Notes: generated from the sequence alone by a model not told the origin. Numbered from the stretch's first letter, positions 38,466 to 47,664 are shown. The stretch is 64,000 bases of DNA from an uncultured bacterium (GCA_963726455.1 CAVSCK010000003.1:608001-672000); one strand, 5' to 3'. A program made the numbers and translations.

Positions 38466-40390
38466 CTAGGGACAACTTGCACAGGGAGCCGGACCGCCCG
38501 AGAAGATGTAGCTGATGAGATAGACGACGTCCGAAATATCAACTCCGCCGGCACAATTCGCATCGGCTCTCGCGATCGGATTCGGCGCCGGGCCGCCCGA
38601 GAAGATGTACGCAATTAGAAACACACCGTCCGAAATATCGACCGCACCGGAAGCATCGGCATCACCACAGGTGTAAGGCGGCGGCGGCGCATCGGTAATC
38701 TTCATACTGCAACTCATTGTATCGACCTTGGACGGCACGCTGGCATCAGCGGTGGCGATTGTGAAGTAATAGGTCGCTTTGTAAGTCGGCGTGCCGGTGA
38801 TTGTTCCTTCGGTGCCGCCGGTAAAGGTCAGACCGTACGGCAGATCGCCGCCGACAAACGACCATTCATACGGCGCTGCGCCCCCGACTACCTGTAACTG
38901 GTAGGAATAGGGAACTTCTTTGTACCCATCGGGAATCTGATATGAGATGATATGCACTTCACCGTCGCAGTGGTCACCAATGCCGTTGTCATCTTCGTCT
39001 TCCTGGAGTGGGTTATAAACGTACGGACAGTTGTCGCATGCATCTCCCAGACTGTCATTGTCGCTATCCGATCTGCGAGGCATTACTCGCAAGCAGGCAG
39101 TTATCAACCGTATTCGGGATGCCGTCGCCGTCGAAATCATTCGTGTTGGCAATCGTCATCAACCATGCCACTGACGCCTTTACCATCCGCGTCATATACT
39201 CGAAATTCATGTGGGTCGTGCTGTCGCGTGGGCCGTGATAGTAAGTTGAAAAAGTGTACTCTGCCAGGAAAATGCCGTCATATCCCAACTGCGTGAACGG
39301 GAAATGATCGGAACCACTTGACCATCCCGCCAGATGACCGGTTATGCCGACCAGCGGCTGCGCAATGTTGATCCATGTTTGCGCGTAGCGGCTGCTGCTG
39401 CCATAGTAAAGATTGGAGTGCGCATTGTTGGACTCATGCGCGATCATATCCATATTGAACACCACCAGAATCTTGTCATGCCGGCCAGCGGCTTCCTGGG
39501 CAAAATGCGTCGAGCCGTTCAATCCCGTCTCTTCGGCATCGAATGCGACAAACAACACGGTCACGTTCAGAGTGGAATCCTTGAGCACGCGCGCCATTTC
39601 CAACACTCCCGCCGTTCCGGAGCCGTTATCGTCCGCGGCCGGACTGGCTGACACGCCGTCATAGTGACCGCAGACTACTACATAGACATCCGGGAGATAC
39701 TGCTCCGACTTTTTTCGCGACGACATTGAAGCCCGGCTTGGTCGTGCTCCCGACCTGAAAATCGAACGCATCCAGCGTCACGTCGTCATAACCGAAGCGA
39801 TGGAAACGCTGTACGATCGTGTCACGCGCGGCGTAAATGTTCGGCGTTCCGGCAGCGCGGCGATAAAACGCCTGCAATTGCTGCACGTAGTGCGTCAATG
39901 AATCCTGGTTGACCTGCTCCATGACGCCCTTCAGTCTTGCCAAATCGATACTGATCTTCTCCTGAACCACTGACGGCCGGTACGTGATAGCAATCGGCAA
40001 TCGCGGCACCGGCATAACATCCGTGGCTTCGGTGCCCTGTGCCAACACACCCGGGTCGACTTTGAACAGCCGCAATTGTTCCTCAGAAAACACGAGCTGG
40101 TATCGACTCACATTGAATTGATCCATTCGATGATCCAGGGCGAGTTCGTCACGACGGACATTCGCCGCCAGCAATTGCGTCGCCAGCCCGGACTGATTGA
40201 GCTTGGTAACCGCTGTCGGATCGGCTAGTACCAAATACCCGTCGCGCACCGCCACAATCGGCTCGGCGCCGACACTCACCAGCTTTTCGGCGTCAATTTG
40301 GCTTTGAACAGTAACCTTATAAAGATCGGCGGCCCCCGCAGAGGATACAAAGAGAAGAAAGAACGACAGAATCAGTAGAAATTGTCTCAT
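38466..40390 (-). CDS. Secreted M28 aminopeptidase with TSP3-like Ca-binding repeats, Ig-like domain and dockerin-like domain (frameshifts near 39705 and 39070)
   Basis: Signal peptide MRQFLL; GHYD, ADDNGSG, AEETGL, NMDMI, SDH; GDACDNCP; GDLPYGL; two DISD.V.LI.YIFSGG repeats. Confidence 0.85.
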
Positions 40391-40568
40391 ATGTTGATGC
40401 TCCAACAAAGGATGACGTGCTTTGGGCAAGTACCATTTTTCACAATATATCATAAAATTCTCGGTCTGTAAAGCTCATATATTGGCACGGTATGCCTTTT
40501 CGGATGTCGTACTGATTAGGTCGGCATTTGCGATCAGAAACTGACAGCTCTTGAAAGCGAGATGACTC

Positions 40569-40910
40569 ATGAACTCGTTCGATTGGACAAACGGATTCCC
40601 GGCGGCCATCACGGTCTGCGATAACGAAGGCATCATTCTCTCGATGAATGCCCGGTCTATTGAGACGTTCGCGAAGGATGGTGGCGCCGCGCTCATTGGA
40701 AAGAGTATTCTCGATTGTCACCCCGAACCGTCGCGCACTAAACTTCGCGAGCTCCTCGCCGCCGAGCGCAGCAACTGCTACACGATTGAGAAGAACGGCG
40801 TACACAAATTGATCTACCAGTCGCCCTGGTATCAGGATGGCAAGTACGCCGGCCTCGTCGAAATCTCGATGGAGATTCCGCACCCTATGCCGCATTTCGT
40901 CCGCACCTGA
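40569..40910 (+). CDS. Stand-alone PAS domain protein
   Basis: ITVCDNEGIILSMN and LIGKSILDCHP. Confidence 0.8.
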   Translation: MNSFDWTNGFPAAITVCDNEGIILSMNARSIETFAKDGGAALIGKSILDCHPEPSRTKLRELLAAERSNCYTIEKNGVHKLIYQSPWYQDGKYAGLVEISMEIPHPMPHFVRT

Positions 40911-40951
40911 TTCTGCGGCTTGCGAATCGCGCCACTAGTTCGGTGCCGGAA

Positions 40952-41026
40952 CGTAACTTGCGCAGAAATCTATCCGCTTCTTCAGCGGCGGATGGTTGTA
41001 CTCCCAGAACTCGATAAACGCCGACG
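40952..41026. repeat. Left copy of 75-bp direct repeat (duplicated 3' end of the M48 peptidase gene)
   Basis: Matches 43655-43729 with 2 mismatches. Confidence 0.92.
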
Positions 41027-41068
41027 ACATTTTGTTGGAATGGTTGCTCGTCTTCACAAAGAAAGGGC

Positions 41069-41097
41069 TTGACAAACAACGTACGGCATTATATGAT
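41069..41097 (+). promoter_or_regulatory. Near-consensus sigma70 promoter of the radical SAM cassette
   Basis: TTGACA-17 bp-TATGAT, followed by GGAGG SD before ATG 41125. Confidence 0.7.
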
Positions 41098-41124
41098 TTA
41101 TGGGGCTAGGGGAGGCAGAGTGGT

Positions 41125-42516
41125 ATGACGACAAATCGGTGGGCTGTTTCTTCCTTCAATTTCATTGTTCCCGTTTCTGACGAGAAGCACGTGGCGTACA
41201 ACGCGTTTTCGGGTGCACTCGCGGAGTTGGACGCCAAACAACTCGCCACTTTCAAAGACATATTGCAGGACCCAGAGGAGTATCTTCAACGTGCCGACGC
41301 GGACACATCCCTCTTTGCATCGATCGTCACTGCAGGATTCATCCATGATGCCGCAGTAAATGAACTCGATCTTATCAAGACAAAATCCGCACTCAATAGA
41401 TTCAATACCGAGCAATTTCATCTCACGATAATGCCGACTTTGGCCTGCAATTTCGAATGCCCATATTGTTACGAGAAGCAGGAACCAATCCTGATGTCAG
41501 ACAGCACTGAAGACGCCCTGGTGAGTTGGGTACAAAAGCGTGCAGAAGTTGCCCGAATCTTCACAGTCGCTTGGTTCGGTGGAGAACCATTATTGGCCTT
41601 AGACCGCATAGAGAGCACATCAAACCGCTTTCGAGCAATTTGTGAACGGCGAGGCATAAACTATTGTGCTAGCTTAACAACTAATGGCTACTTGCTCAAT
41701 GATCACGTGTGTGATAGACTCGCAGAACTTGGTATAGTGGGCGTACAAGTGACTATAGATGGCCCCAGGCATATTCACGATGTTCGCCGATATCTTCGCG
41801 GACGGGGTCCCACATTTGATCGCATTGTCAAAAATGTAGAGCACTTAGTCATCACACGACCTGAAATCGCCGTCTGGATACGAGTCAATTGCGATGAGAG
41901 CAACATTGACGAAGTCGGCCAAATCTTTGACCAGCTACCGTCACTGCTGGTGCAGCGAACAGATATCTATTTTGCCTTTGTATATTCCTGCCAGAGCTTT
42001 CTGGGCAACGCGGAGGATGTTGACGCAGCATCAACATGTGATCCTCATGGGAGCGCTGACTTGGAATTTAGGAAGAAACTTCGCGCCCTCCAATTGGAGA
42101 GTGTGAGAAGGAGGCGGGCCGTGAATCCATCGCCCGTCACGAAATTTGTGTTCAGGCCTCGCTGGGCCTATTGCGAAGCCGACTATGCGAACAAGTTCGT
42201 GGTTGATCCCAGGGGAGACTTGCATAAGTGCACTGTCTCATTCAGCCCGGAGTTGCGTGTTGGTAGGCTACTTCCGAACGGCGACGCGTTGTTTGACTTG
42301 CCCAAGCTTTCGATTTGGCTATCAAAGGACGCCTTCTCCTCTCCAAAATGCACCTCCTGCAAAGTACTTCCACTTTGCCTCGGTGGATGCCGCTCCGCGA
42401 CCTTACAGAATATTTCGGAAGGTAGATGCGCGACCTTACTCACGCCGGAGGAAGTTGAAAGGAGTCTGGGCTCCCTTTACGAACTTGTGAAATGCAGTTC
42501 CGGGGGGTCTGTATAG
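41125..42516 (+). CDS. Radical SAM/SPASM enzyme, probable peptide maturase
   Basis: CNFECPYC, WFGGEPLL, TTNGYLL, QVTIDG; SPASM C..(GDLHKC)..CTSCKVLPLCLGGC..C; ~90-aa N-terminal extension (YNAFSGA). Confidence 0.92.
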   Translation: MTTNRWAVSSFNFIVPVSDEKHVAYNAFSGALAELDAKQLATFKDILQDPEEYLQRADADTSLFASIVTAGFIHDAAVNELDLIKTKSALNRFNTEQFHLTIMPTLACNFECPYCYEKQEPILMSDSTEDALVSWVQKRAEVARIFTVAWFGGEPLLALDRIESTSNRFRAICERRGINYCASLTTNGYLLNDHVCDRLAELGIVGVQVTIDGPRHIHDVRRYLRGRGPTFDRIVKNVEHLVITRPEIAVWIRVNCDESNIDEVGQIFDQLPSLLVQRTDIYFAFVYSCQSFLGNAEDVDAASTCDPHGSADLEFRKKLRALQLESVRRRRAVNPSPVTKFVFRPRWAYCEADYANKFVVDPRGDLHKCTVSFSPELRVGRLLPNGDALFDLPKLSIWLSKDAFSSPKCTSCKVLPLCLGGCRSATLQNISEGRCATLLTPEEVERSLGSLYELVKCSSGGSV

Positions 42517-42627
42517 CAGCAACCGCCCCCTTGGAACCAATTCGGCAGAAGCAATGCAAGACTATGTGGGTGGAACAAGATGTTCCGCCTGATTCTAGAC
42601 TCCTAAACACCGAGGGAGGTGAAACAC

Positions 42628-42741
42628 ATGAATCTCATGTTGCGTCCTCAATCATTGGAAGTGTGCGAACTCGTTGAGTTGCAGCCCATCATGGCACTCA
42701 ATATCTTGCTCTGTGGGCTGTGCTGCGTTAGAGTGACTTAG
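42628..42741 (+). CDS. 37-aa Cys-rich peptide, candidate RiPP precursor (MNLMLRPQSLEVCELVELQPIMALNILLCGLCCVRVT)
   Basis: Translated by hand; strong GGAGGTGA SD ending 5 nt before ATG; lies just after the rSAM gene; followed by a hairpin. Confidence 0.75.
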   Translation: MNLMLRPQSLEVCELVELQPIMALNILLCGLCCVRVT

Positions 42742-42773
42742 CGATTCGGCACACACTCCGAAGCCGAGTGACA

Positions 42774-42799
42774 GCGGCGCAGCTGTGGGGCTGCGCCGC
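42774..42799 (+). other. GC-rich stem-loop after the peptide gene (mRNA stabiliser or attenuator)
   Basis: GCGGCGCAGC-tgtggg-GCTGCGCCGC perfect 10-bp stem, no U tract. Confidence 0.6.
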
Positions 42800-42896
42800 G
42801 TACTAAAGAGAGAGATCAGGTGATGTCATCGCGAGCCCGTAGTACAGTCGCAAATAGGTCTTGCCTCAGTTGCTCTAATCACGGGACATTGGGGAA

Positions 42897-43550
42897 TTGT
42901 CAGTGAAAACTCAGGTTGTCATAATCGGAACTATCCATCTCAGCGCATCCCTCTTTCCTCATTACGGTTCTTGGGTCCGGCAATCCGTAAAGAGATTGCA
43001 CCCCGACATAGTCTGTGTGGAACTCTCCCCTGAGCAGCTTGCAGGCGAAACAAGCATGGATTCGAAACCTGAATACTCTTCAGCCATTTTGCCGTCTGCG
43101 CGTGAAATAGGCGCAATCTTGGTTCCCATACAGCCTGTTACATCAGTAGGAGAGGAGTTTGAGCGGGTTAAGCTTGAATTTCTGGAGTACATAGCGTCCG
43201 ACAATCTTGAGCGGGAGCGGTGGGAAGTGTTCTGCCAATTAGAATCTGCCTGGCTGACGGGACTTACGGTTTGGCTGCAAGACGTACCGTCTATAATTGA
43301 TTTGCAGGACATCCGGCTAGACACGCTACTCTTTGAGCCGTGGTACTCCACGTTGTCAAGATTCTTTCCGGGCTTCGAGGCATTCTGGCGACCATGGAAT
43401 CAAGAATTACTTGGAGCTACTATCCAGGCCGTGCGAAGTCATCCTGGAAGACTCATACTCATAACAGTGGGAATGGCACACAGGTATTGGTTGCGCAAAG
43501 GTCTGCGAGCTCAGGAAGAGGTCGAGTTGCGTGATCTAAGGGAGTTTTGA
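42897..43550 (+). CDS. TraB/GumN/Tiki-superfamily-like protein, putative metallopeptidase
   Basis: IIGTIH, PDIVCVE and ITVGMAH motif pattern; no signal peptide. Confidence 0.55.
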   Translation: MSVKTQVVIIGTIHLSASLFPHYGSWVRQSVKRLHPDIVCVELSPEQLAGETSMDSKPEYSSAILPSAREIGAILVPIQPVTSVGEEFERVKLEFLEYIASDNLERERWEVFCQLESAWLTGLTVWLQDVPSIIDLQDIRLDTLLFEPWYSTLSRFFPGFEAFWRPWNQELLGATIQAVRSHPGRLILITVGMAHRYWLRKGLRAQEEVELRDLREF

Positions 43551-43631
43551 GCCAGCACAATCGCTTCTTGATTTACTCAGTGGAGGCGGCTTAGAAATGT
43601 GTCGGATTCTCTCGAAACAACACTCTCCCCA

Positions 43632-45053
43632 TCAAGGTTTGCTATTGATAGTCTCGTAACTTGCGCAGAAATCTATCCGCTTCTTCAGCGGCGGATGGCT
43701 GTACTCCCAGAACTCGACAAACGCCGACGGTTGCGGATTGGACAGATTCTCATTCGCCATCTTGACGAACGCCGAAATTCCGCTCGCCGGATCGTGTGTT
43801 AGGTCGAGCGCAAATCTGTCGGCATCATGTTCGATCTTGCGGGAAAAGCCGTTTATCACCGGATCCAGAAGGAACAGCATCAATCCCAACATGAGCATCA
43901 ACAACGGCAGACTGGCGATGTCCCCGACCGCTGAAAATCCGAAACTCGCTCCGAATTTCGCCATTACCCATCCGATCGTCTTGAAGACAATGAACAACAA
44001 AATCAGAAATATGACACTGAACAGCGCGATGCCGATCCAGATATGGTTGAGAACGTAGTGCCCCATCTCATGGGCCATCACAAACGCAACCTCATCAGGG
44101 GTCAACTTCTTGATCGTTGTGTCCCATAACACAATTCGCTTGGAGCCAAACAGCCCCGTCACATAGGCATTTATCTTCTGCGTCTGCGAGCTCATATCGA
44201 CTTGATAGACACGGCCGCCCGAAATTCCGGCTTTTTCCGCCATGCCGAGAATTCTGGCTGACAGCACCTGATCCTGCAGAGGTTCGAACTTGTTGAACAT
44301 CGGTTCGATGAACACCGGCAGAATTACCATGACGATTATCATGATCGGAATCGCGGCCACACCGATCCAGAGCCACCAATCACGCGCGCGCCTGCGAATG
44401 CCCCAGTAGGCGAACGTCACCAGCACCGTCAATGAAAGCGTCATTAGGTAGCTCGATTTGATCGTGTCGGCCAGCCAGTTCCCGAATGTTTGCGTCGACA
44501 GATTGAAATGGTGTTCGATCACGAAATCGCGATAGTACGACAGCGGCAGCCCCACCACTTGCAAAATCAACGTCAGTATGACGATGAAGAACACTTGCAC
44601 AGCAAGACCGCGATGCCGCCCGGCAAGCATCCCCACGACGCCCCAGGCGACTGCTATGAAAATCCCCCCCGCCCCTACCGGCTGCTTGTCGGTCGCGCTC
44701 ATGAATGCCAACAGCAACGCAATCAGCAGCGCCAGACCTCCTCCGAGCCACATCGGCGCCGATTGTTGGTGCAATTTGTCCGTCAGCTTCTCGGAGACGC
44801 TCCGTATTCTGCGCGAAAAACCAAACCAGAGAATACCCGCCAACACCAGCAGACTAAACGCAGTCGAGAAGAAATACCAACCGTCCCTGAAGTTCGAAAA
44901 TATAATTGCCTGCTCGACCTTGTCGGGTGTCAGCACCGACGTAATCTCGCCTGGAACTGTGCTCAGGTCGACGCTCTTGTCAATCCCGATCGTGCTGATG
45001 CCAAAGATCAGAAACAGCAGCATCAAAAGTACTGGCCAAATAACCTTCTTCAT
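43632..45053 (-). CDS. M48 (Ste24-like) membrane metallopeptidase
   Basis: NAYVTG, RIVLWDT, AHEMGH (HExxH), EHDAD and SHPP. Confidence 0.92.
   Translation of the reverse strand: MKKVIWPVLLMLLFLIFGISTIGIDKSVDLSTVPGEITSVLTPDKVEQAIIFSNFRDGWYFFSTAFSLLVLAGILWFGFSRRIRSVSEKLTDKLHQQSAPMWLGGGLALLIALLLAFMSATDKQPVGAGGIFIAVAWGVVGMLAGRHRGLAVQVFFIVILTLILQVVGLPLSYYRDFVIEHHFNLSTQTFGNWLADTIKSSYLMTLSLTVLVTFAYWGIRRRARDWWLWIGVAAIPIMIIVMVILPVFIEPMFNKFEPLQDQVLSARILGMAEKAGISGGRVYQVDMSSQTQKINAYVTGLFGSKRIVLWDTTIKKLTPDEVAFVMAHEMGHYVLNHIWIGIALFSVIFLILLFIVFKTIGWVMAKFGASFGFSAVGDIASLPLLMLMLGLMLFLLDPVINGFSRKIEHDADRFALDLTHDPASGISAFVKMANENLSNPQPSAFVEFWEYSHPPLKKRIDFCASYETINSKP
43655..43729. repeat. Right copy of 75-bp direct repeat, inside the M48 gene 3' end
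   Basis: Matches 40952-41026 with 2 mismatches. Confidence 0.92.
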
Positions 45054-45219
45054 ACAATATCCTCGATTCGCATTTTCGCGCCTTTTCGCATATCTAAACT
45101 ACGCATTGAAACCGCTCGCCGCAAGAATCCGTGTGCCCGCCGCGTAGTATTTTCGTCCAGGAACGTTTGCGCGTGCAATGCGTTAAAACGTGCGTATCTT
45201 ACTTTTGGAGGTATGCGAC

Positions 45220-47664
45220 TTGACCAATCACAACACGACCATTACTGACAAGGGGATTCGCCGTGTAACAGTGCCGATTGCGGGAATGACCTGCGCCGGC
45301 TGCGTGGCGCGCGTCGAAAGCGTGCTGAATAACATTGACGGCGTCGCCGAGAGTCGGGCCAACCTTGCCAACCATCAGGTCAGCATCGCGTACAATCCAA
45401 ATCGCGTCGATATTTCCAAGATCGCTCACGAAATGGAAATCGTCGGCTATCCGATTAGTTTCCAGGAGACCCATATTAACATTACCGGCATGCACTGTGC
45501 CTCTTGTGTCCTCAACGTCGAAAAGCACATCTCCTCCATCGCCGGAGTGGCCGAAGTCGAAATCAACTTTGCCGCCGGTACCGGGGTAATCAAACATGTT
45601 GACGTCGATGATCTGCCCGGGCAATTACAGACGTTGTTCGCCGGTAGCGGCTACGATGTCGCCGTCGAAGGAGAAACGTCACAGGCAATTGACCCGCTGC
45701 TCGTCGAGATCAACCAACTCAAGCGCCCGCTTATCTTCAGTATATTTGCGTCCGTCATCGCCCTGGCAATCATGATTGGTGATTATGTTCATTTCGCCGG
45801 CATTGATATGGCAAGCTCGGCCTACATCCAGTTCGCCTTGGCTACGGCGGTCTATTTCTGGGGCGGGCTGAGATTCCACAAAGGCCTCTGGCATTCTATC
45901 AAACGGCGCTCCGCCGACATGGACACTTTGATTTCGCTCGGCACTTCGGCTGCGTACTGGTACAGTGTGATCATGCTTTTCGCCCCCAGCTTCTTCCACA
46001 GTGCCGGCGAGATGCCCGAATACTACTTCGACAGCGCCATTATGATCATCGCGCTAATCTTGCTGGGACGGTATATCGAGACCCGTGCCAAGTCACGAAG
46101 CTCCTCGGCGATCACCGGGCTCTTGAAGGCGCGTCCTGATAAGGCCTCCGTAATACGAGACGAAGTTGAGACATCTGTCGCTTCAATGTCACTTGCACCC
46201 GGTGATATCGTCCGCGTTCGTCCCGGTGAGCGCGTGCCTGCAGACGGAAAGATCATCAAAGGCAGCGGTTCCGTCGATGAATCCATGTTAACCGGCGAAG
46301 CCCTCCCTGTCGAAAAAGAGATCGGCAGTGAAGTGACCGGCGGCACGATTAACGTCAGTGGCAGTTTCGACTTTGAGGTCACCAGTTCACAGAAAGACTC
46401 GCGACTCTCCAAAATTGCCGACATGGTTTCGGCGGCGCTCAGCTCCAAGCCGGCTATTCAAAAGATGGTTGATCGTATCGCCTCCGTTTTTGTTCCGATC
46501 GTTATTGGTCTCGCAATTCTCACCCTGGCCGTCTGGCTTATTGTAGGCGCACAATTCGCCTTCGCCCTCAAGAGTTTCATCGCCATCATGATCATTGCCT
46601 GCCCATGCGCACTTGGGCTGGCTACACCGATGGCGGTAATGGTCGGTGTCGGCAAGGCCGCATCACTCGGAATTTTGTTCAAGAGTGGCGACACGTTCGA
46701 GCAGATCGCCGGATTGAAAACGCTCTTCTTCGACAAGACCGGCACGCTTACTCAGGGACGATTCGAAGTCGTGGAAGTTAAGCCGTTCGGCAATGCTGAC
46801 ACATCATTCCTCCGCCTAGCCGGAGCGGTCGAGAAACTCTCCGAACATCCACTTGCCAAGGCCGTGGTCTCTTACGCCGAATCTCAACAGGTAGCTCTTC
46901 CTCAGTGCGATGACTTCATGTCGCTCGCCGGAGCTGGCGCCTCCGGTATTGTGGAAGGCAAGAATATCCTGCTGGGCACTCTGAAATTGATGCAGGCGCG
47001 CAAAGTCGACATAACCGCACTCGGGCCGGAATCCGCAATCAAGAACAATGACGGTCGAACTTTGATCTACGTGGCAGTCACCGGAATTCTGAACGGCTAC
47101 ATCGCACTCGCAGATACAGTCAAACCCGAAGCTGCGAGTACGATTTCGCAAGTTCGAGCGCTTGGTATCGATCCCGCCATCATCACCGGCGACAGCATGT
47201 CAGCCGCCCGGCGGGTCGGAAACGAACTGGGGATTGATCAGATCAGCGCCGAGTTACTGCCGCAACAAAAACTGACCGCCATTCGCGAACGCAAAGCTTC
47301 GGGCGAAAGAGTCGGCATGGTCGGCGATGGCATTAACGATGCGCCGGCACTCGCGCTCGCCGATGTCGGTATCGCTTTATCCTCAGGCACCGAAATCGCC
47401 GTTGAGTCGGCGTCGGTCACCCTGACCGGCCACCAAATCGACCGCGTGCCGACCGTGATTCGGTTGGCGCGCGCAACTCTGCGCAACATCAGGCAGAATC
47501 TTTTCTGGGCGTTCTTCTATAACGTCGCCGCCATTCCACTAGCTGCAGGATTGTTCTACCCCCTCTATCACGTTCAATTGTCGCCGATCATCGCCGCCGG
47601 GGCGATGTCTTTCTCTTCGCTGTTTGTCGTGATGAATGCGCTGCGATTGCGCCGATTTCGCTAG
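45220..47664 (+). CDS. copA: Cu(I)-translocating P1B-type ATPase
   Basis: Two GMxCxxC HMA domains, [21 protein letters not shown] and MxxSS; TTG start after GGAGG. Confidence 0.93.

Follow-up and report, generated by a model that had tools for sequence, protein, structure and literature searches.

The DNA analysed here is a stretch of 64,000 nucleotides from an uncultured bacterium (GCA_963726455.1 CAVSCK010000003.1:608001-672000), in the following called the window, and all window coordinates are counted from its first letter. For positions 41069 to 43550, an earlier reading made from the sequence alone (the sequence-only reading) had proposed a candidate system for a ribosomally synthesised peptide with post-translational modifications (RiPP). 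It described a near-consensus promoter before three co-oriented genes, encoding a 463-residue radical S-adenosylmethionine (rSAM) enzyme with a CxxxCxxC motif and a Cys-rich SPASM domain, a 37-residue peptide and a 217-residue putative metallohydrolase, all inside a repeat-bounded insert with no sulfatase, transporter or other substrate gene. Promoter, genes, enzyme motifs and bracketing repeats were all found at the locus, with a shorter third protein favoured, and the following features were assigned (RRE, RiPP recognition element):

41069-41097, + strand: sigma-70-type promoter TTGACA-17-TATGAT, matching at 11 of 12 positions
41125-42516, + strand: RRE-rSAM-SPASM peptide maturase, 463 residues (Pfam, NCBIfam, cysteine positions, AlphaFold model)
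42628-42741, + strand: candidate precursor peptide, 37 residues, MNLMLRPQSLEVCELVELQPIMALNILLCGLCCVRVT, with ATG start and Shine-Dalgarno sequence GGAGG
42774-42799, + strand: hairpin, GC-rich, 11-bp stem, lacking a T run (RNA fold)
42903-43550, + strand: small cytoplasmic Tiki/TraB/ChaN/Ere-fold hydrolase-like protein, 215 residues (alignment A2, model, structural matches)
41027-43654, + strand: inserted cassette, 2628 nucleotides, missing from the same-genus genomes G002 and G003
40952-41026, no strand assigned: left copy of a 75-nucleotide direct repeat, attL-like core (repeat family D1 and alignment)
43655-43729, no strand assigned: right copy of the 75-nucleotide direct repeat, within the functional M48 gene
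40935-41075, − strand: 3′ remnant of the M48 peptidase gene, composed of the native tail, the left repeat copy and about 50 nucleotides of diverged M48-like sequence inside the insert
43632-45053, − strand: Ste24-like M48 metallopeptidase, target gene (PF01435 and PF16491)

With moderate confidence, we read this locus as a compact RiPP cluster inserted in the 3′ end of a housekeeping M48 gene, whose product would be thioether-crosslinked and whose TraB-like protein would be the processing peptidase. The starting points of this reading were observed, namely the gene content, the fold classes, the insertion, and the fact that trio and peptide pattern are conserved in other genomes. The promoter match alone is weak evidence, since six promoter-like sites were counted in 40400-43800 versus 3.2 ± 2.1 in shuffled sequences.

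Predicted maturase, candidate precursor peptide and their conservation

The rSAM domain of the enzyme is matched by PF04055 (E 6e-17), and its CxxxCxxC motif consists of C108, C112 and C115. Seven SPASM cysteines (C350, C369, C409-x2-C412-x5-C418-x3-C422 and C435) are conserved in alignment A1, and the SPASM domain model TIGR04085 matches residues 350-429 with 46.4 bits at a cut-off of 27. This generic model is the only one to reach its cut-off out of 70 NCBIfam models matching at E up to 0.1. The six best matches are all peptide maturases, several of them named for Cys-rich or thioether peptide families. Scores and cut-offs of individual families are:

TIGR04463 (CrpC family): 268.8 bits, cut-off 525 (E 7.6e-80, residues 11-426)
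Clo7bot maturase: 246.1 bits, cut-off 600
CefB: 186 bits, cut-off 600
Geopeptide maturase: 159.7 bits, cut-off 400
FlmE/OhkG: 150 bits, cut-off 500
PapB (NF047865): 104.5 bits, cut-off 340
ScfB (TIGR03974): 71.8 bits, cut-off 425

Among solved structures, CteB is the closest in sequence (E 2.1e-27). The AlphaFold model of the enzyme (predicted local distance difference test, pLDDT, 83.2) begins with strands at 6-36 followed by helices at 37-92, and its residues 9-456 superpose on residues 1-448 of CteB chain 5why_B (Z 25.9, root-mean-square deviation (rmsd) 5.2 Å, 403 residues aligned). The second-best full-length structural match is TigE, which aligns with residues 2-456. The enzyme anSME has no RRE and aligns with the model only from residue 96. 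Since CteB and TigE superpose from residues 9 and 2 and anSME only from 96, the N-terminal stretch of about 95 residues carries a CteB-type RRE fold in the model. The predicted structure thus supports a winged-helix RRE at residues 1 to ~95, as the sequence-only reading had suggested; in Pfam, the N-terminal domain gave no PqqD/RRE-type match, which is a point on the other side.

In protein searches, the closest relatives of the enzyme were the metagenome proteins P0002 (53% identity), P0003 (46%), P0004 (43%) and P0005 (44%), together with the fragments P0006 (57%) and P0007 (48%); a broad group then follows at 39% identity or less. Contig scans with the enzyme (44 genome and 79 metagenome loci) yielded relatives at no more than 39% identity, and tblastn on 139 loci detected neither the peptide nor the TraB-like gene beyond the own locus, apart from a weak match in L034 (E 0.019). 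When 284 other genomes of the phylum were searched with a profile built from 40 members of the TraB-like family, that gene was located in 27. For comparison of gene neighbourhoods, 19 of these TraB-like loci with 1.5-kb flanks were used, and eight matches in G167-G173 and G234 were left out. A close rSAM homologue lies directly upstream of the TraB-like gene in G161 and G159; in G155 the flank of the TraB-like gene contains peptides and the rSAM gene lies beyond them; and in G192 the TraB-like gene is located 1.7 kb upstream of an rSAM gene of a sister clade. Neither an rSAM gene nor such a peptide was present within 1.5 kb at the other 15 of the 19 loci.

Among genomes of the phylum, the nearest rSAM homologues found are the three of G155, G159 and G161 (35-41% identical), and in all three the order is rSAM gene, peptides, TraB-like gene, with one peptide in G159 (L161), two in G161 (L160) and six in G155 (L173). 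Because this order and a shared peptide pattern recur in the three genomes, the arrangement is more than chance. The sequence-only reading had named homologous rSAM genes without similar adjacent peptides as its refutation; the opposite was found here, with the TraB-like gene included. G155, G159 and G161 are all members of a single taxonomic family (f12), and the trio is therefore known from two lineages, this family and that of the window, with G192 as a looser case. The G159 rSAM gene (L161:2196-3556) is split by a frameshift near 2864 and may be a pseudogene or an assembly error.

A maximum-likelihood tree of the rSAM enzymes was calculated from 36 rows, leaving out G159 and G200 (interrupted genes) and the fragments P0006 and P0007. 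The window enzyme groups with P0002 and P0005, and these with P0003, P0004, G161 and G155, in a clade with support 100/99. This clade is sister (88/87) to a clade of 20 rows whose loci carry other peptides. In the tree, no difference separates the G191 enzyme from P0018, which is named Zixibacteria in nr, so the phylum is probably Zixibacteria.

The 37-residue peptide proposed before was recovered with its ATG start and GGAGG sequence, and it is also listed among the genes of the original annotation (P0123). Its family alignment (A3) holds ten sequences: one from the window, one from G159, two from G161 and six from G155. All have 37-41 residues, a single core and three to four cysteines. M1, P7, G30, C32 and C33 are invariant and T37 is nearly so; the pattern comprises the start M-x-[FL]-[MIL]-x-x-P and the C-terminal G-x-CC-x-x-[VIL]-[TS], and the consensus is MEFMTxPFLLxxxDxxLPxPELxGxCxVQLGCCCxxLTGS. 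Reading of the upstream sequences revealed a purine-rich Shine-Dalgarno sequence of the GGAG/GAGG type before each of the ten. When the six G155 paralogues were compared pairwise over their last 15 codons, 64 codons were identical, 91 differed synonymously and 70 non-synonymously. Synonymous changes thus exceed non-synonymous ones, which points to selection on the protein, as is typical of a translated peptide.

These data bear on whether the 37-residue open reading frame (ORF) is spurious and the enzyme acts on another substrate. Short ORFs arise by chance, and when a 40-residue version of the ORF was compared with 5.8 billion proteins in a word-based search, only the peptide itself was found. 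This explanation is nevertheless close to refuted, as position, orientation, Shine-Dalgarno sequence, length and motifs are kept in ten peptides of four genomes and the codon changes in the G155 cores are mostly of the synonymous kind. The peptide is probably the substrate of the rSAM enzyme.

None of 13 peptides from this clade and its sister clade matched an NCBIfam model, the SCIFF family included, and the window peptide, the only one run against Pfam, had no Pfam match either. Together with an enzyme that scores below every equivalog cut-off, this agrees with the earlier statement that the precursor matches no family. A CAAX box at the C-terminus of the peptide had been considered on account of the Ste24-like M48 neighbour; it was rejected since at least four residues follow the last cysteine and since G002 and G003 have the M48 gene but no cassette.

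The peptide family also contains hints on the chemistry. The motif C-x4-[T/S] is present in all ten peptides and C-x-x-[Q/D/N] in eight, the exceptions being the window peptide and one G155 paralogue; in most peptides, aliphatic residues flank a conserved basic residue. We give thioether formation on the peptide a slightly better than even chance. A quite unlikely alternative is that the enzyme introduces something other than Cys thioethers, namely a C-C crosslink, a cyclopropylglycine on the conserved Val/Ile/Leu by the basic residue (CC-V-R-V-T) or an epimerisation. SPASM enzymes catalyse many reactions, the aliphatic residues next to the conserved basic residue would suit such a product, and the full-length match to TigE (Z 22.8) concerns a C-C-bond-forming enzyme that, as far as the accessible text of its description goes, synthesises cyclopropylglycine on valine (PMC10878394). 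On the other hand, the CC pair is invariant in ten of ten peptides, the six best NCBIfam matches are peptide maturases with several Cys-rich or thioether families among them (TIGR04463, Clo7bot, CefB, PapB), and CteB is the best match by both sequence and structure, all of which speaks for thioethers.

The pairing of enzyme and peptide was also addressed by complex prediction. The score was 0.32, compared with 0.01 for the best of three controls; that mark is reached by 116 of 157 solved complexes and by 2 of 215 mismatched pairs, and only 18 of the 157 solved complexes, but both of the passing mismatches, did so with scores of 0.60 or under. Agreement between the runs covers no fewer than 57% of contacts, with a partner pLDDT of 45 or more. 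The prediction lends weak support to the pairing, and as similar complexes have been solved, the pass may reflect memory of the model.

In all four genomes, strong hairpins that lack T runs are located on the 3′ side of peptide genes. In addition to the window hairpin listed above, they were found at these positions:

L160: after 8995
L161: after 3799
L173: after peptides 3 and 6

A terminator scan found none in the region, and the hairpins could be transcript-stabilising or attenuating elements. With the one regular expression used for the sigma-54 −24/−12 pattern, no match was seen upstream of any peptide gene of the window, L160, L161 or L173, which is a weak negative.

The Tiki/TraB-like protein and the fuller clusters

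For the third gene, the alignment of homologues favours the GTG start at 42903 (215 residues) over the TTG at 42897 (217 residues), so that the earlier proposal stands with regard to gene and fold class and is corrected in length. The protein contains the motifs GTIH (9-12), E40 and GMAH (190-193). In a 40-sequence alignment, the GTxH motif, a Glu in an ELSPEQL stretch and a GxxH motif near the C-terminus are kept, with T10, H12, E40 and H193 nearly invariant and G190 invariant. Two GxxH motifs and a conserved Glu are the features by which Sanchez-Pulido and Ponting (2013) and Bazan (2013) are said to have defined the Tiki/TraB superfamily. A full HMMER search yielded a family of 143 cluster representatives, mostly of 205-250 residues. 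When 40 members were compared with Pfam at E up to 0.01, nine matched PF01963 (best 6.7e-06), eight DUF5694 and one the ChaN family; the window protein itself has no NCBIfam match.

The structural model of the protein (pLDDT 95.9) starts with strand 1 at residue 3, and neither a signal peptide nor a membrane segment was detected. Foldseek returned EreC as top match (E 0.01, probability 0.93), and the ESM Atlas gave unnamed clusters and DUF5694 only. In the wide structural search, ChaN 2g5g (Z 8.2, rmsd 4.7 Å, 159 residues aligned), EreC 6xcq (Z 8.1, rmsd 3.0 Å, 149 aligned) and the BcR135-type proteins 2qgm and 2rad (Z ~7) were found, headed by 8bqs_DQ, an uninterpreted chain of the Tetrahymena respiratory supercomplex (Z 10.6).

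According to the accessible part of one source, PrgY/TraB, which resembles the Tiki metalloprotease, is believed to break down a heptapeptide pheromone (PMC7117660), and for graspetide loci a role in leader removal or maturation has been predicted for Tiki/TraB peptidases (PMC8939145, accessible part). We tentatively propose that the TraB-like protein is a metal-dependent peptidase removing the leader or trimming the product, at somewhat below an even chance.

Two relatives have fuller gene clusters, with domains assigned by Pfam:

G161: sigma-54 activator with TPR, rSAM enzyme, two peptides, TraB-like protein, DrrA-type ATP-binding cassette (ABC) ATPase, ABC-2 permease, ankyrin-repeat protein
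G155: sigma-54 activator, HTH_11 protein, rSAM enzyme, six peptides, TraB-like protein, ABC ATPase, ABC-2 permease, DUF5916 protein

The description of the pathway as minimal therefore fits the window, which has only the core three genes, and does not extend to these relatives, which add an ABC-2 transporter and regulators. In both clusters, the TraB-like gene overlaps the start of the DrrA-type ABC ATPase gene, and the permease gene follows. By eye, the TraB-like gene also stands beside ABC-like genes in L144 and L146, where an ORF with an ATPase-like N-terminus follows and no rSAM gene is present within 1.5 kb. This association fits a role in export or immunity as well as it fits a peptidase. 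The cluster could thus be a RiPP cluster in which the TraB-like protein acts with the ABC-2 transporter in self-protection or 'shutdown', by binding or degrading the mature peptide, and the leader is cut by another, perhaps a host, protease; the accessible part of the PrgY account, in which this protein degrades the endogenous pheromone, is in line with that (PMC7117660). We regard this as unlikely, because the window cassette retains the TraB-like gene without a transporter, and the closest family members have no signal or membrane segment, unlike PrgY, which in the same partial account is membrane-localised and thought to be active outside the cell (PMC7117660).

The loci of the sister clade have a different conserved layout, with the domains confirmed by Pfam for G191-G193:

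Sister-clade cluster: DUF4097 gene, rSAM enzyme, one to three Cys-rich peptides, 600-residue ABC exporter, DUF5916/CBM9 protein
Loci: L172 (G193), L176 (G191), L177 (G192), L171 (G200), L178 (G153), L174 (G206) and L175 (G205)

The peptides of this clade mostly have an MDF[LMI]I[QE]P-type start, which is not seen in G205 and G206, and cores such as ...CGCNMVQGCGCP. Within the genome of the window, a second RiPP-like locus at G000:C1:35477-38401 (L002, L004) has two rSAM genes, each followed by a 33-residue peptide with an MRFIEQP or MKFIEQP start and a C-x6-C core; the enzymes are more distant paralogues of the window enzyme. Related loci across the taxonomic family encode peptides of the type MKFIE[ST]P...KPCPCYK.LFLILPPLQD. 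Since sister-clade and paralogue peptides share it, M-x-F-x-x-x-P appears to be a leader signature common to several rSAM peptide families of the phylum.

The insert and its target gene

The two copies of the 75-nucleotide repeat bracket the three genes, are 97% identical (2 of 75 positions differ) and lie 2703 nucleotides apart. No further copy exists in the 3.64-Mb genome, in which the insert is single-copy, and the cassette together with one repeat copy forms a 2703-nucleotide unit. The GC fraction is 0.502 in the insert versus 0.529 in the window. Two same-genus genomes, G002 and G003, show the empty site, where a PAS gene directly faces the M48 gene; their M48 orthologues are 71% identical to that of the window over residues 1-467 of 473. 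In the window, the PAS-domain gene is located left of the insert, and positions 40581-41039 align in one piece with the PAS gene and the M48 3′ end of G002. According to alignment and tail comparison, the left repeat copy and the tail ...FCASYVPAPN are native (the same-genus tails are ...YTPKSN and ...YTPKTN); the last M48 codons, ...ETINSKP, were supplied by the insert, likewise the ~50 nucleotides of diverged M48-like sequence inside its left end. M48 residues 429-466 were matched by tblastn in the remnant with 74% identity.

Direct repeats at both ends, one of them in an M48 3′ end that the insert restores, are what is seen with site-specific integrative elements, and the geometry is as expected from a circular element that carried a copy of the target 3′ end and recombined within the shared core. 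The empty site and the duplicated M48 3′ end speak for the mobility suggested by the sequence-only reading, yet the insert contains no integrase or other mobility gene, nor any transporter, sulfatase or other gene besides the three. A search for PF00589, the one recombinase family covered, gave four matches in the genome, on contigs C2 and C4, and none on C3. Neither the TraB-like gene nor any close orthologue of the rSAM gene is present in 20 other genomes of the own taxonomic family.

Lacking an exporter, an immunity gene and a regulator, the cassette may be inactive. It could be a passenger, left over from a larger cluster and without a product since its exporter, its regulator and some of the peptide core were lost. 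Three items seen among G155 and G161 are missing from it, namely an ABC-2 transporter, a sigma-54 activator and an HTH gene, its peptide has no C-x-x-[Q/D/N] motif, and integrase genes are absent from the insert and, as far as PF00589 is concerned, from contig C3. We consider this rather improbable, given that none of the three reading frames is interrupted, the ribosome-binding sites are good, the promoter is close to consensus, catalytic as well as cluster-binding residues are in place, and the repeats differ at only two positions, suggesting a recent event.

A Ste24-like M48 gene is also divergent beside the cassette of G159 (L161:508-1848) and stands beside a lone TraB-like gene in G153 (L179:2198-3517). 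This recurrence could be functional, due to a targeting preference or chance; concerning M48...LepA synteny of G159 and G153, there was no LepA match in L161. Outside the insert, an 824-residue ORF beside the window M48 gene (45190-47664) looks by eye like a heavy-metal P-type ATPase with the metal-binding motifs GMTCAGC and GMHCASC in its N-terminal part. By eye, a 228-residue ORF at 38466-39152 (− strand) has Asp-rich repeats of the calcium-binding, thrombospondin-type-3-like kind and, towards its C-terminus, two repeats resembling dockerin.

Proposed pathway and relation to known systems

In the compact RiPP cluster that we favour, the sigma-70 promoter would drive all three genes, and the hairpin may raise the level of the precursor message relative to the downstream gene. 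The N-terminal part of the peptide, with its start M-x-[FL]-[MIL]-x-x-P, would be the leader and dock on the RRE of the rSAM enzyme, and the short hydrophobic C-terminal core ...NILLCGLCCVRVT would enter the active site. There, the enzyme would join Cys sulfurs to carbons of nearby residues, giving thioether rings of the sactionine or ranthionine type from the invariant Cys pair and, where present, from the upstream Cys. The TraB-like protein would then cut off the leader or trim the product. In the fuller relatives G155 and G161, the product would be exported by the adjacent ABC-2 transporter; the window cassette without transporter would depend on functions of the host.

Several observations weigh against this pathway. 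The system is described from genes and predicted structures, and the nearest rSAM relatives in the neighbourhood comparison are 35-41% identical, with P0002-P0007 being closer (43-57% identity). The window peptide is the most divergent member of its family (16-30% identity to the others), has C29 at the position of Q/D/N in the others, and the first, upstream Cys in register is missing. Regarding the TraB-like protein, only 4 of the 19 other loci are near an rSAM gene of the group, and some stand beside ABC transporter genes without rSAM. Its PF01963 score of 15.1 bits is below the gathering threshold of 26.8, and its structural matches at Z ~8 are barely above the level that the tool calls common. 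The best homologue, P0124 (38% identical), has GTVD for GTxH, so that D replaces the predicted metal-binding His of the first motif, and the superfamily also includes esterases (Ere) and the haem-binding protein ChaN.

The enzyme shares the features of CteB-like maturases: CxxxCxxC, a SPASM domain with the seven Cys expected for two auxiliary clusters, an RRE in the predicted structure and an adjacent conserved precursor. Like CteB/CteA (thermocellin) and Tte1186/Tte1186a, the system combines the RRE-rSAM-SPASM architecture over the full length with a short precursor bearing C-terminal cysteines. SCIFF/ranthipeptide products are characterised by a thioether from the Cys sulfur to a beta or gamma carbon of the acceptor residue. 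The C-x4-T spacing in the peptides corresponds to the Cys32-Thr37 thioether bond reported for Tte1186a and CteA in the accessible part of that work (PMC8172795). Unlike SCIFF peptides with their six cysteines, those described here have three or four and a different leader, and are accompanied by the TraB-like partner and, in the fuller clusters, the ABC-2 transporter; also, those systems have Clostridia as hosts, whereas the host here belongs to an uncultured phylum, probably Zixibacteria.

A further comparison is CrpC of Methanococcus voltae, whose family TIGR04463 is the best-scoring curated family and which is likewise an RRE-rSAM-SPASM enzyme. As far as the published account is accessible, the formation of ranthionine crosslinks by CrpC on CrpA, a Cys-rich protein, was demonstrated in 2026, and a C-x-x-Q/D motif in CrpA and CrpB was noted as suggestive of rSAM thioethers (PMC13692751); the C-x-x-[Q/D/N] of eight of our ten peptides is similar. 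Unlike CrpC, the enzyme here scores about half of the TIGR04463 cut-off. CrpA is a large protein in which a 17-residue Cys motif occurs ten times, and the accessible text mentions no TraB-like partner of CrpC (PMC13692751); the peptides here, with 37-41 residues and one core, are not large substrates of this kind. The system resembles those of SCIFF/ranthipeptides and of CrpC in architecture and probably also in chemistry; judged by its sequence scores, it belongs to none of these curated families.

The TraB-like protein agrees with TraB, PrgY and Tiki in the two GxxH motifs and the Glu, in weak PF01963/DUF5694 matches and in the ChaN/EreC fold. PrgY and TraB act on short peptides, according to the accessible part of the source (PMC7117660). 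Unlike them, the protein here is much shorter (215 residues), belongs to an own family of ~143 cluster representatives and is encoded in an rSAM RiPP operon. A Tiki/TraB peptidase beside a RiPP maturase, sometimes with a SPASM rSAM enzyme, has been described for graspetide loci by Makarova et al. (2022), again as far as the text is accessible (PMC8939145). Those loci make lactone or lactam peptides with ATP-grasp enzymes (PMC8939145), whereas rSAM/SPASM is the sole maturase here.

No description of the peptide family or of such an rSAM-TraB pairing was found in the full-text literature, a search that did not extend to most subscription journals or to supplements, where compendia of rSAM RiPPs may list the clade. 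The furthest-reaching version of our reading would be a new RiPP family, probably of Zixibacteria, in which a hydrophobic core of ~13 residues with the invariant G-x-CC-x-x-[VIL]-[TS] end is stapled by a distinct rSAM/SPASM clade, the leader is removed by a small cytoplasmic Tiki/TraB-fold enzyme, a class of RiPP leader peptidase not demonstrated before, and the three genes travel as an integrase-less cassette that targets and rebuilds the 3′ end of a Ste24-like M48 gene; taken as a whole, we consider this doubtful.

Peptide maturases of the rSAM/SPASM type are a main source of new peptide chemistry, and the system described here adds an enzyme clade and a precursor family with a clear, testable consensus, in a three-gene cassette small enough to be expressed unaltered. 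It also offers a clean test case for small Tiki/TraB-fold proteins as RiPP processing peptidases, a role that has been predicted in graspetide loci (PMC8939145, accessible part) and of which no demonstration was found in the literature searched. Finally, a RiPP module that moves as a 2.7-kb cassette without its own recombinase is relevant to the spread of these pathways in uncultured bacteria.

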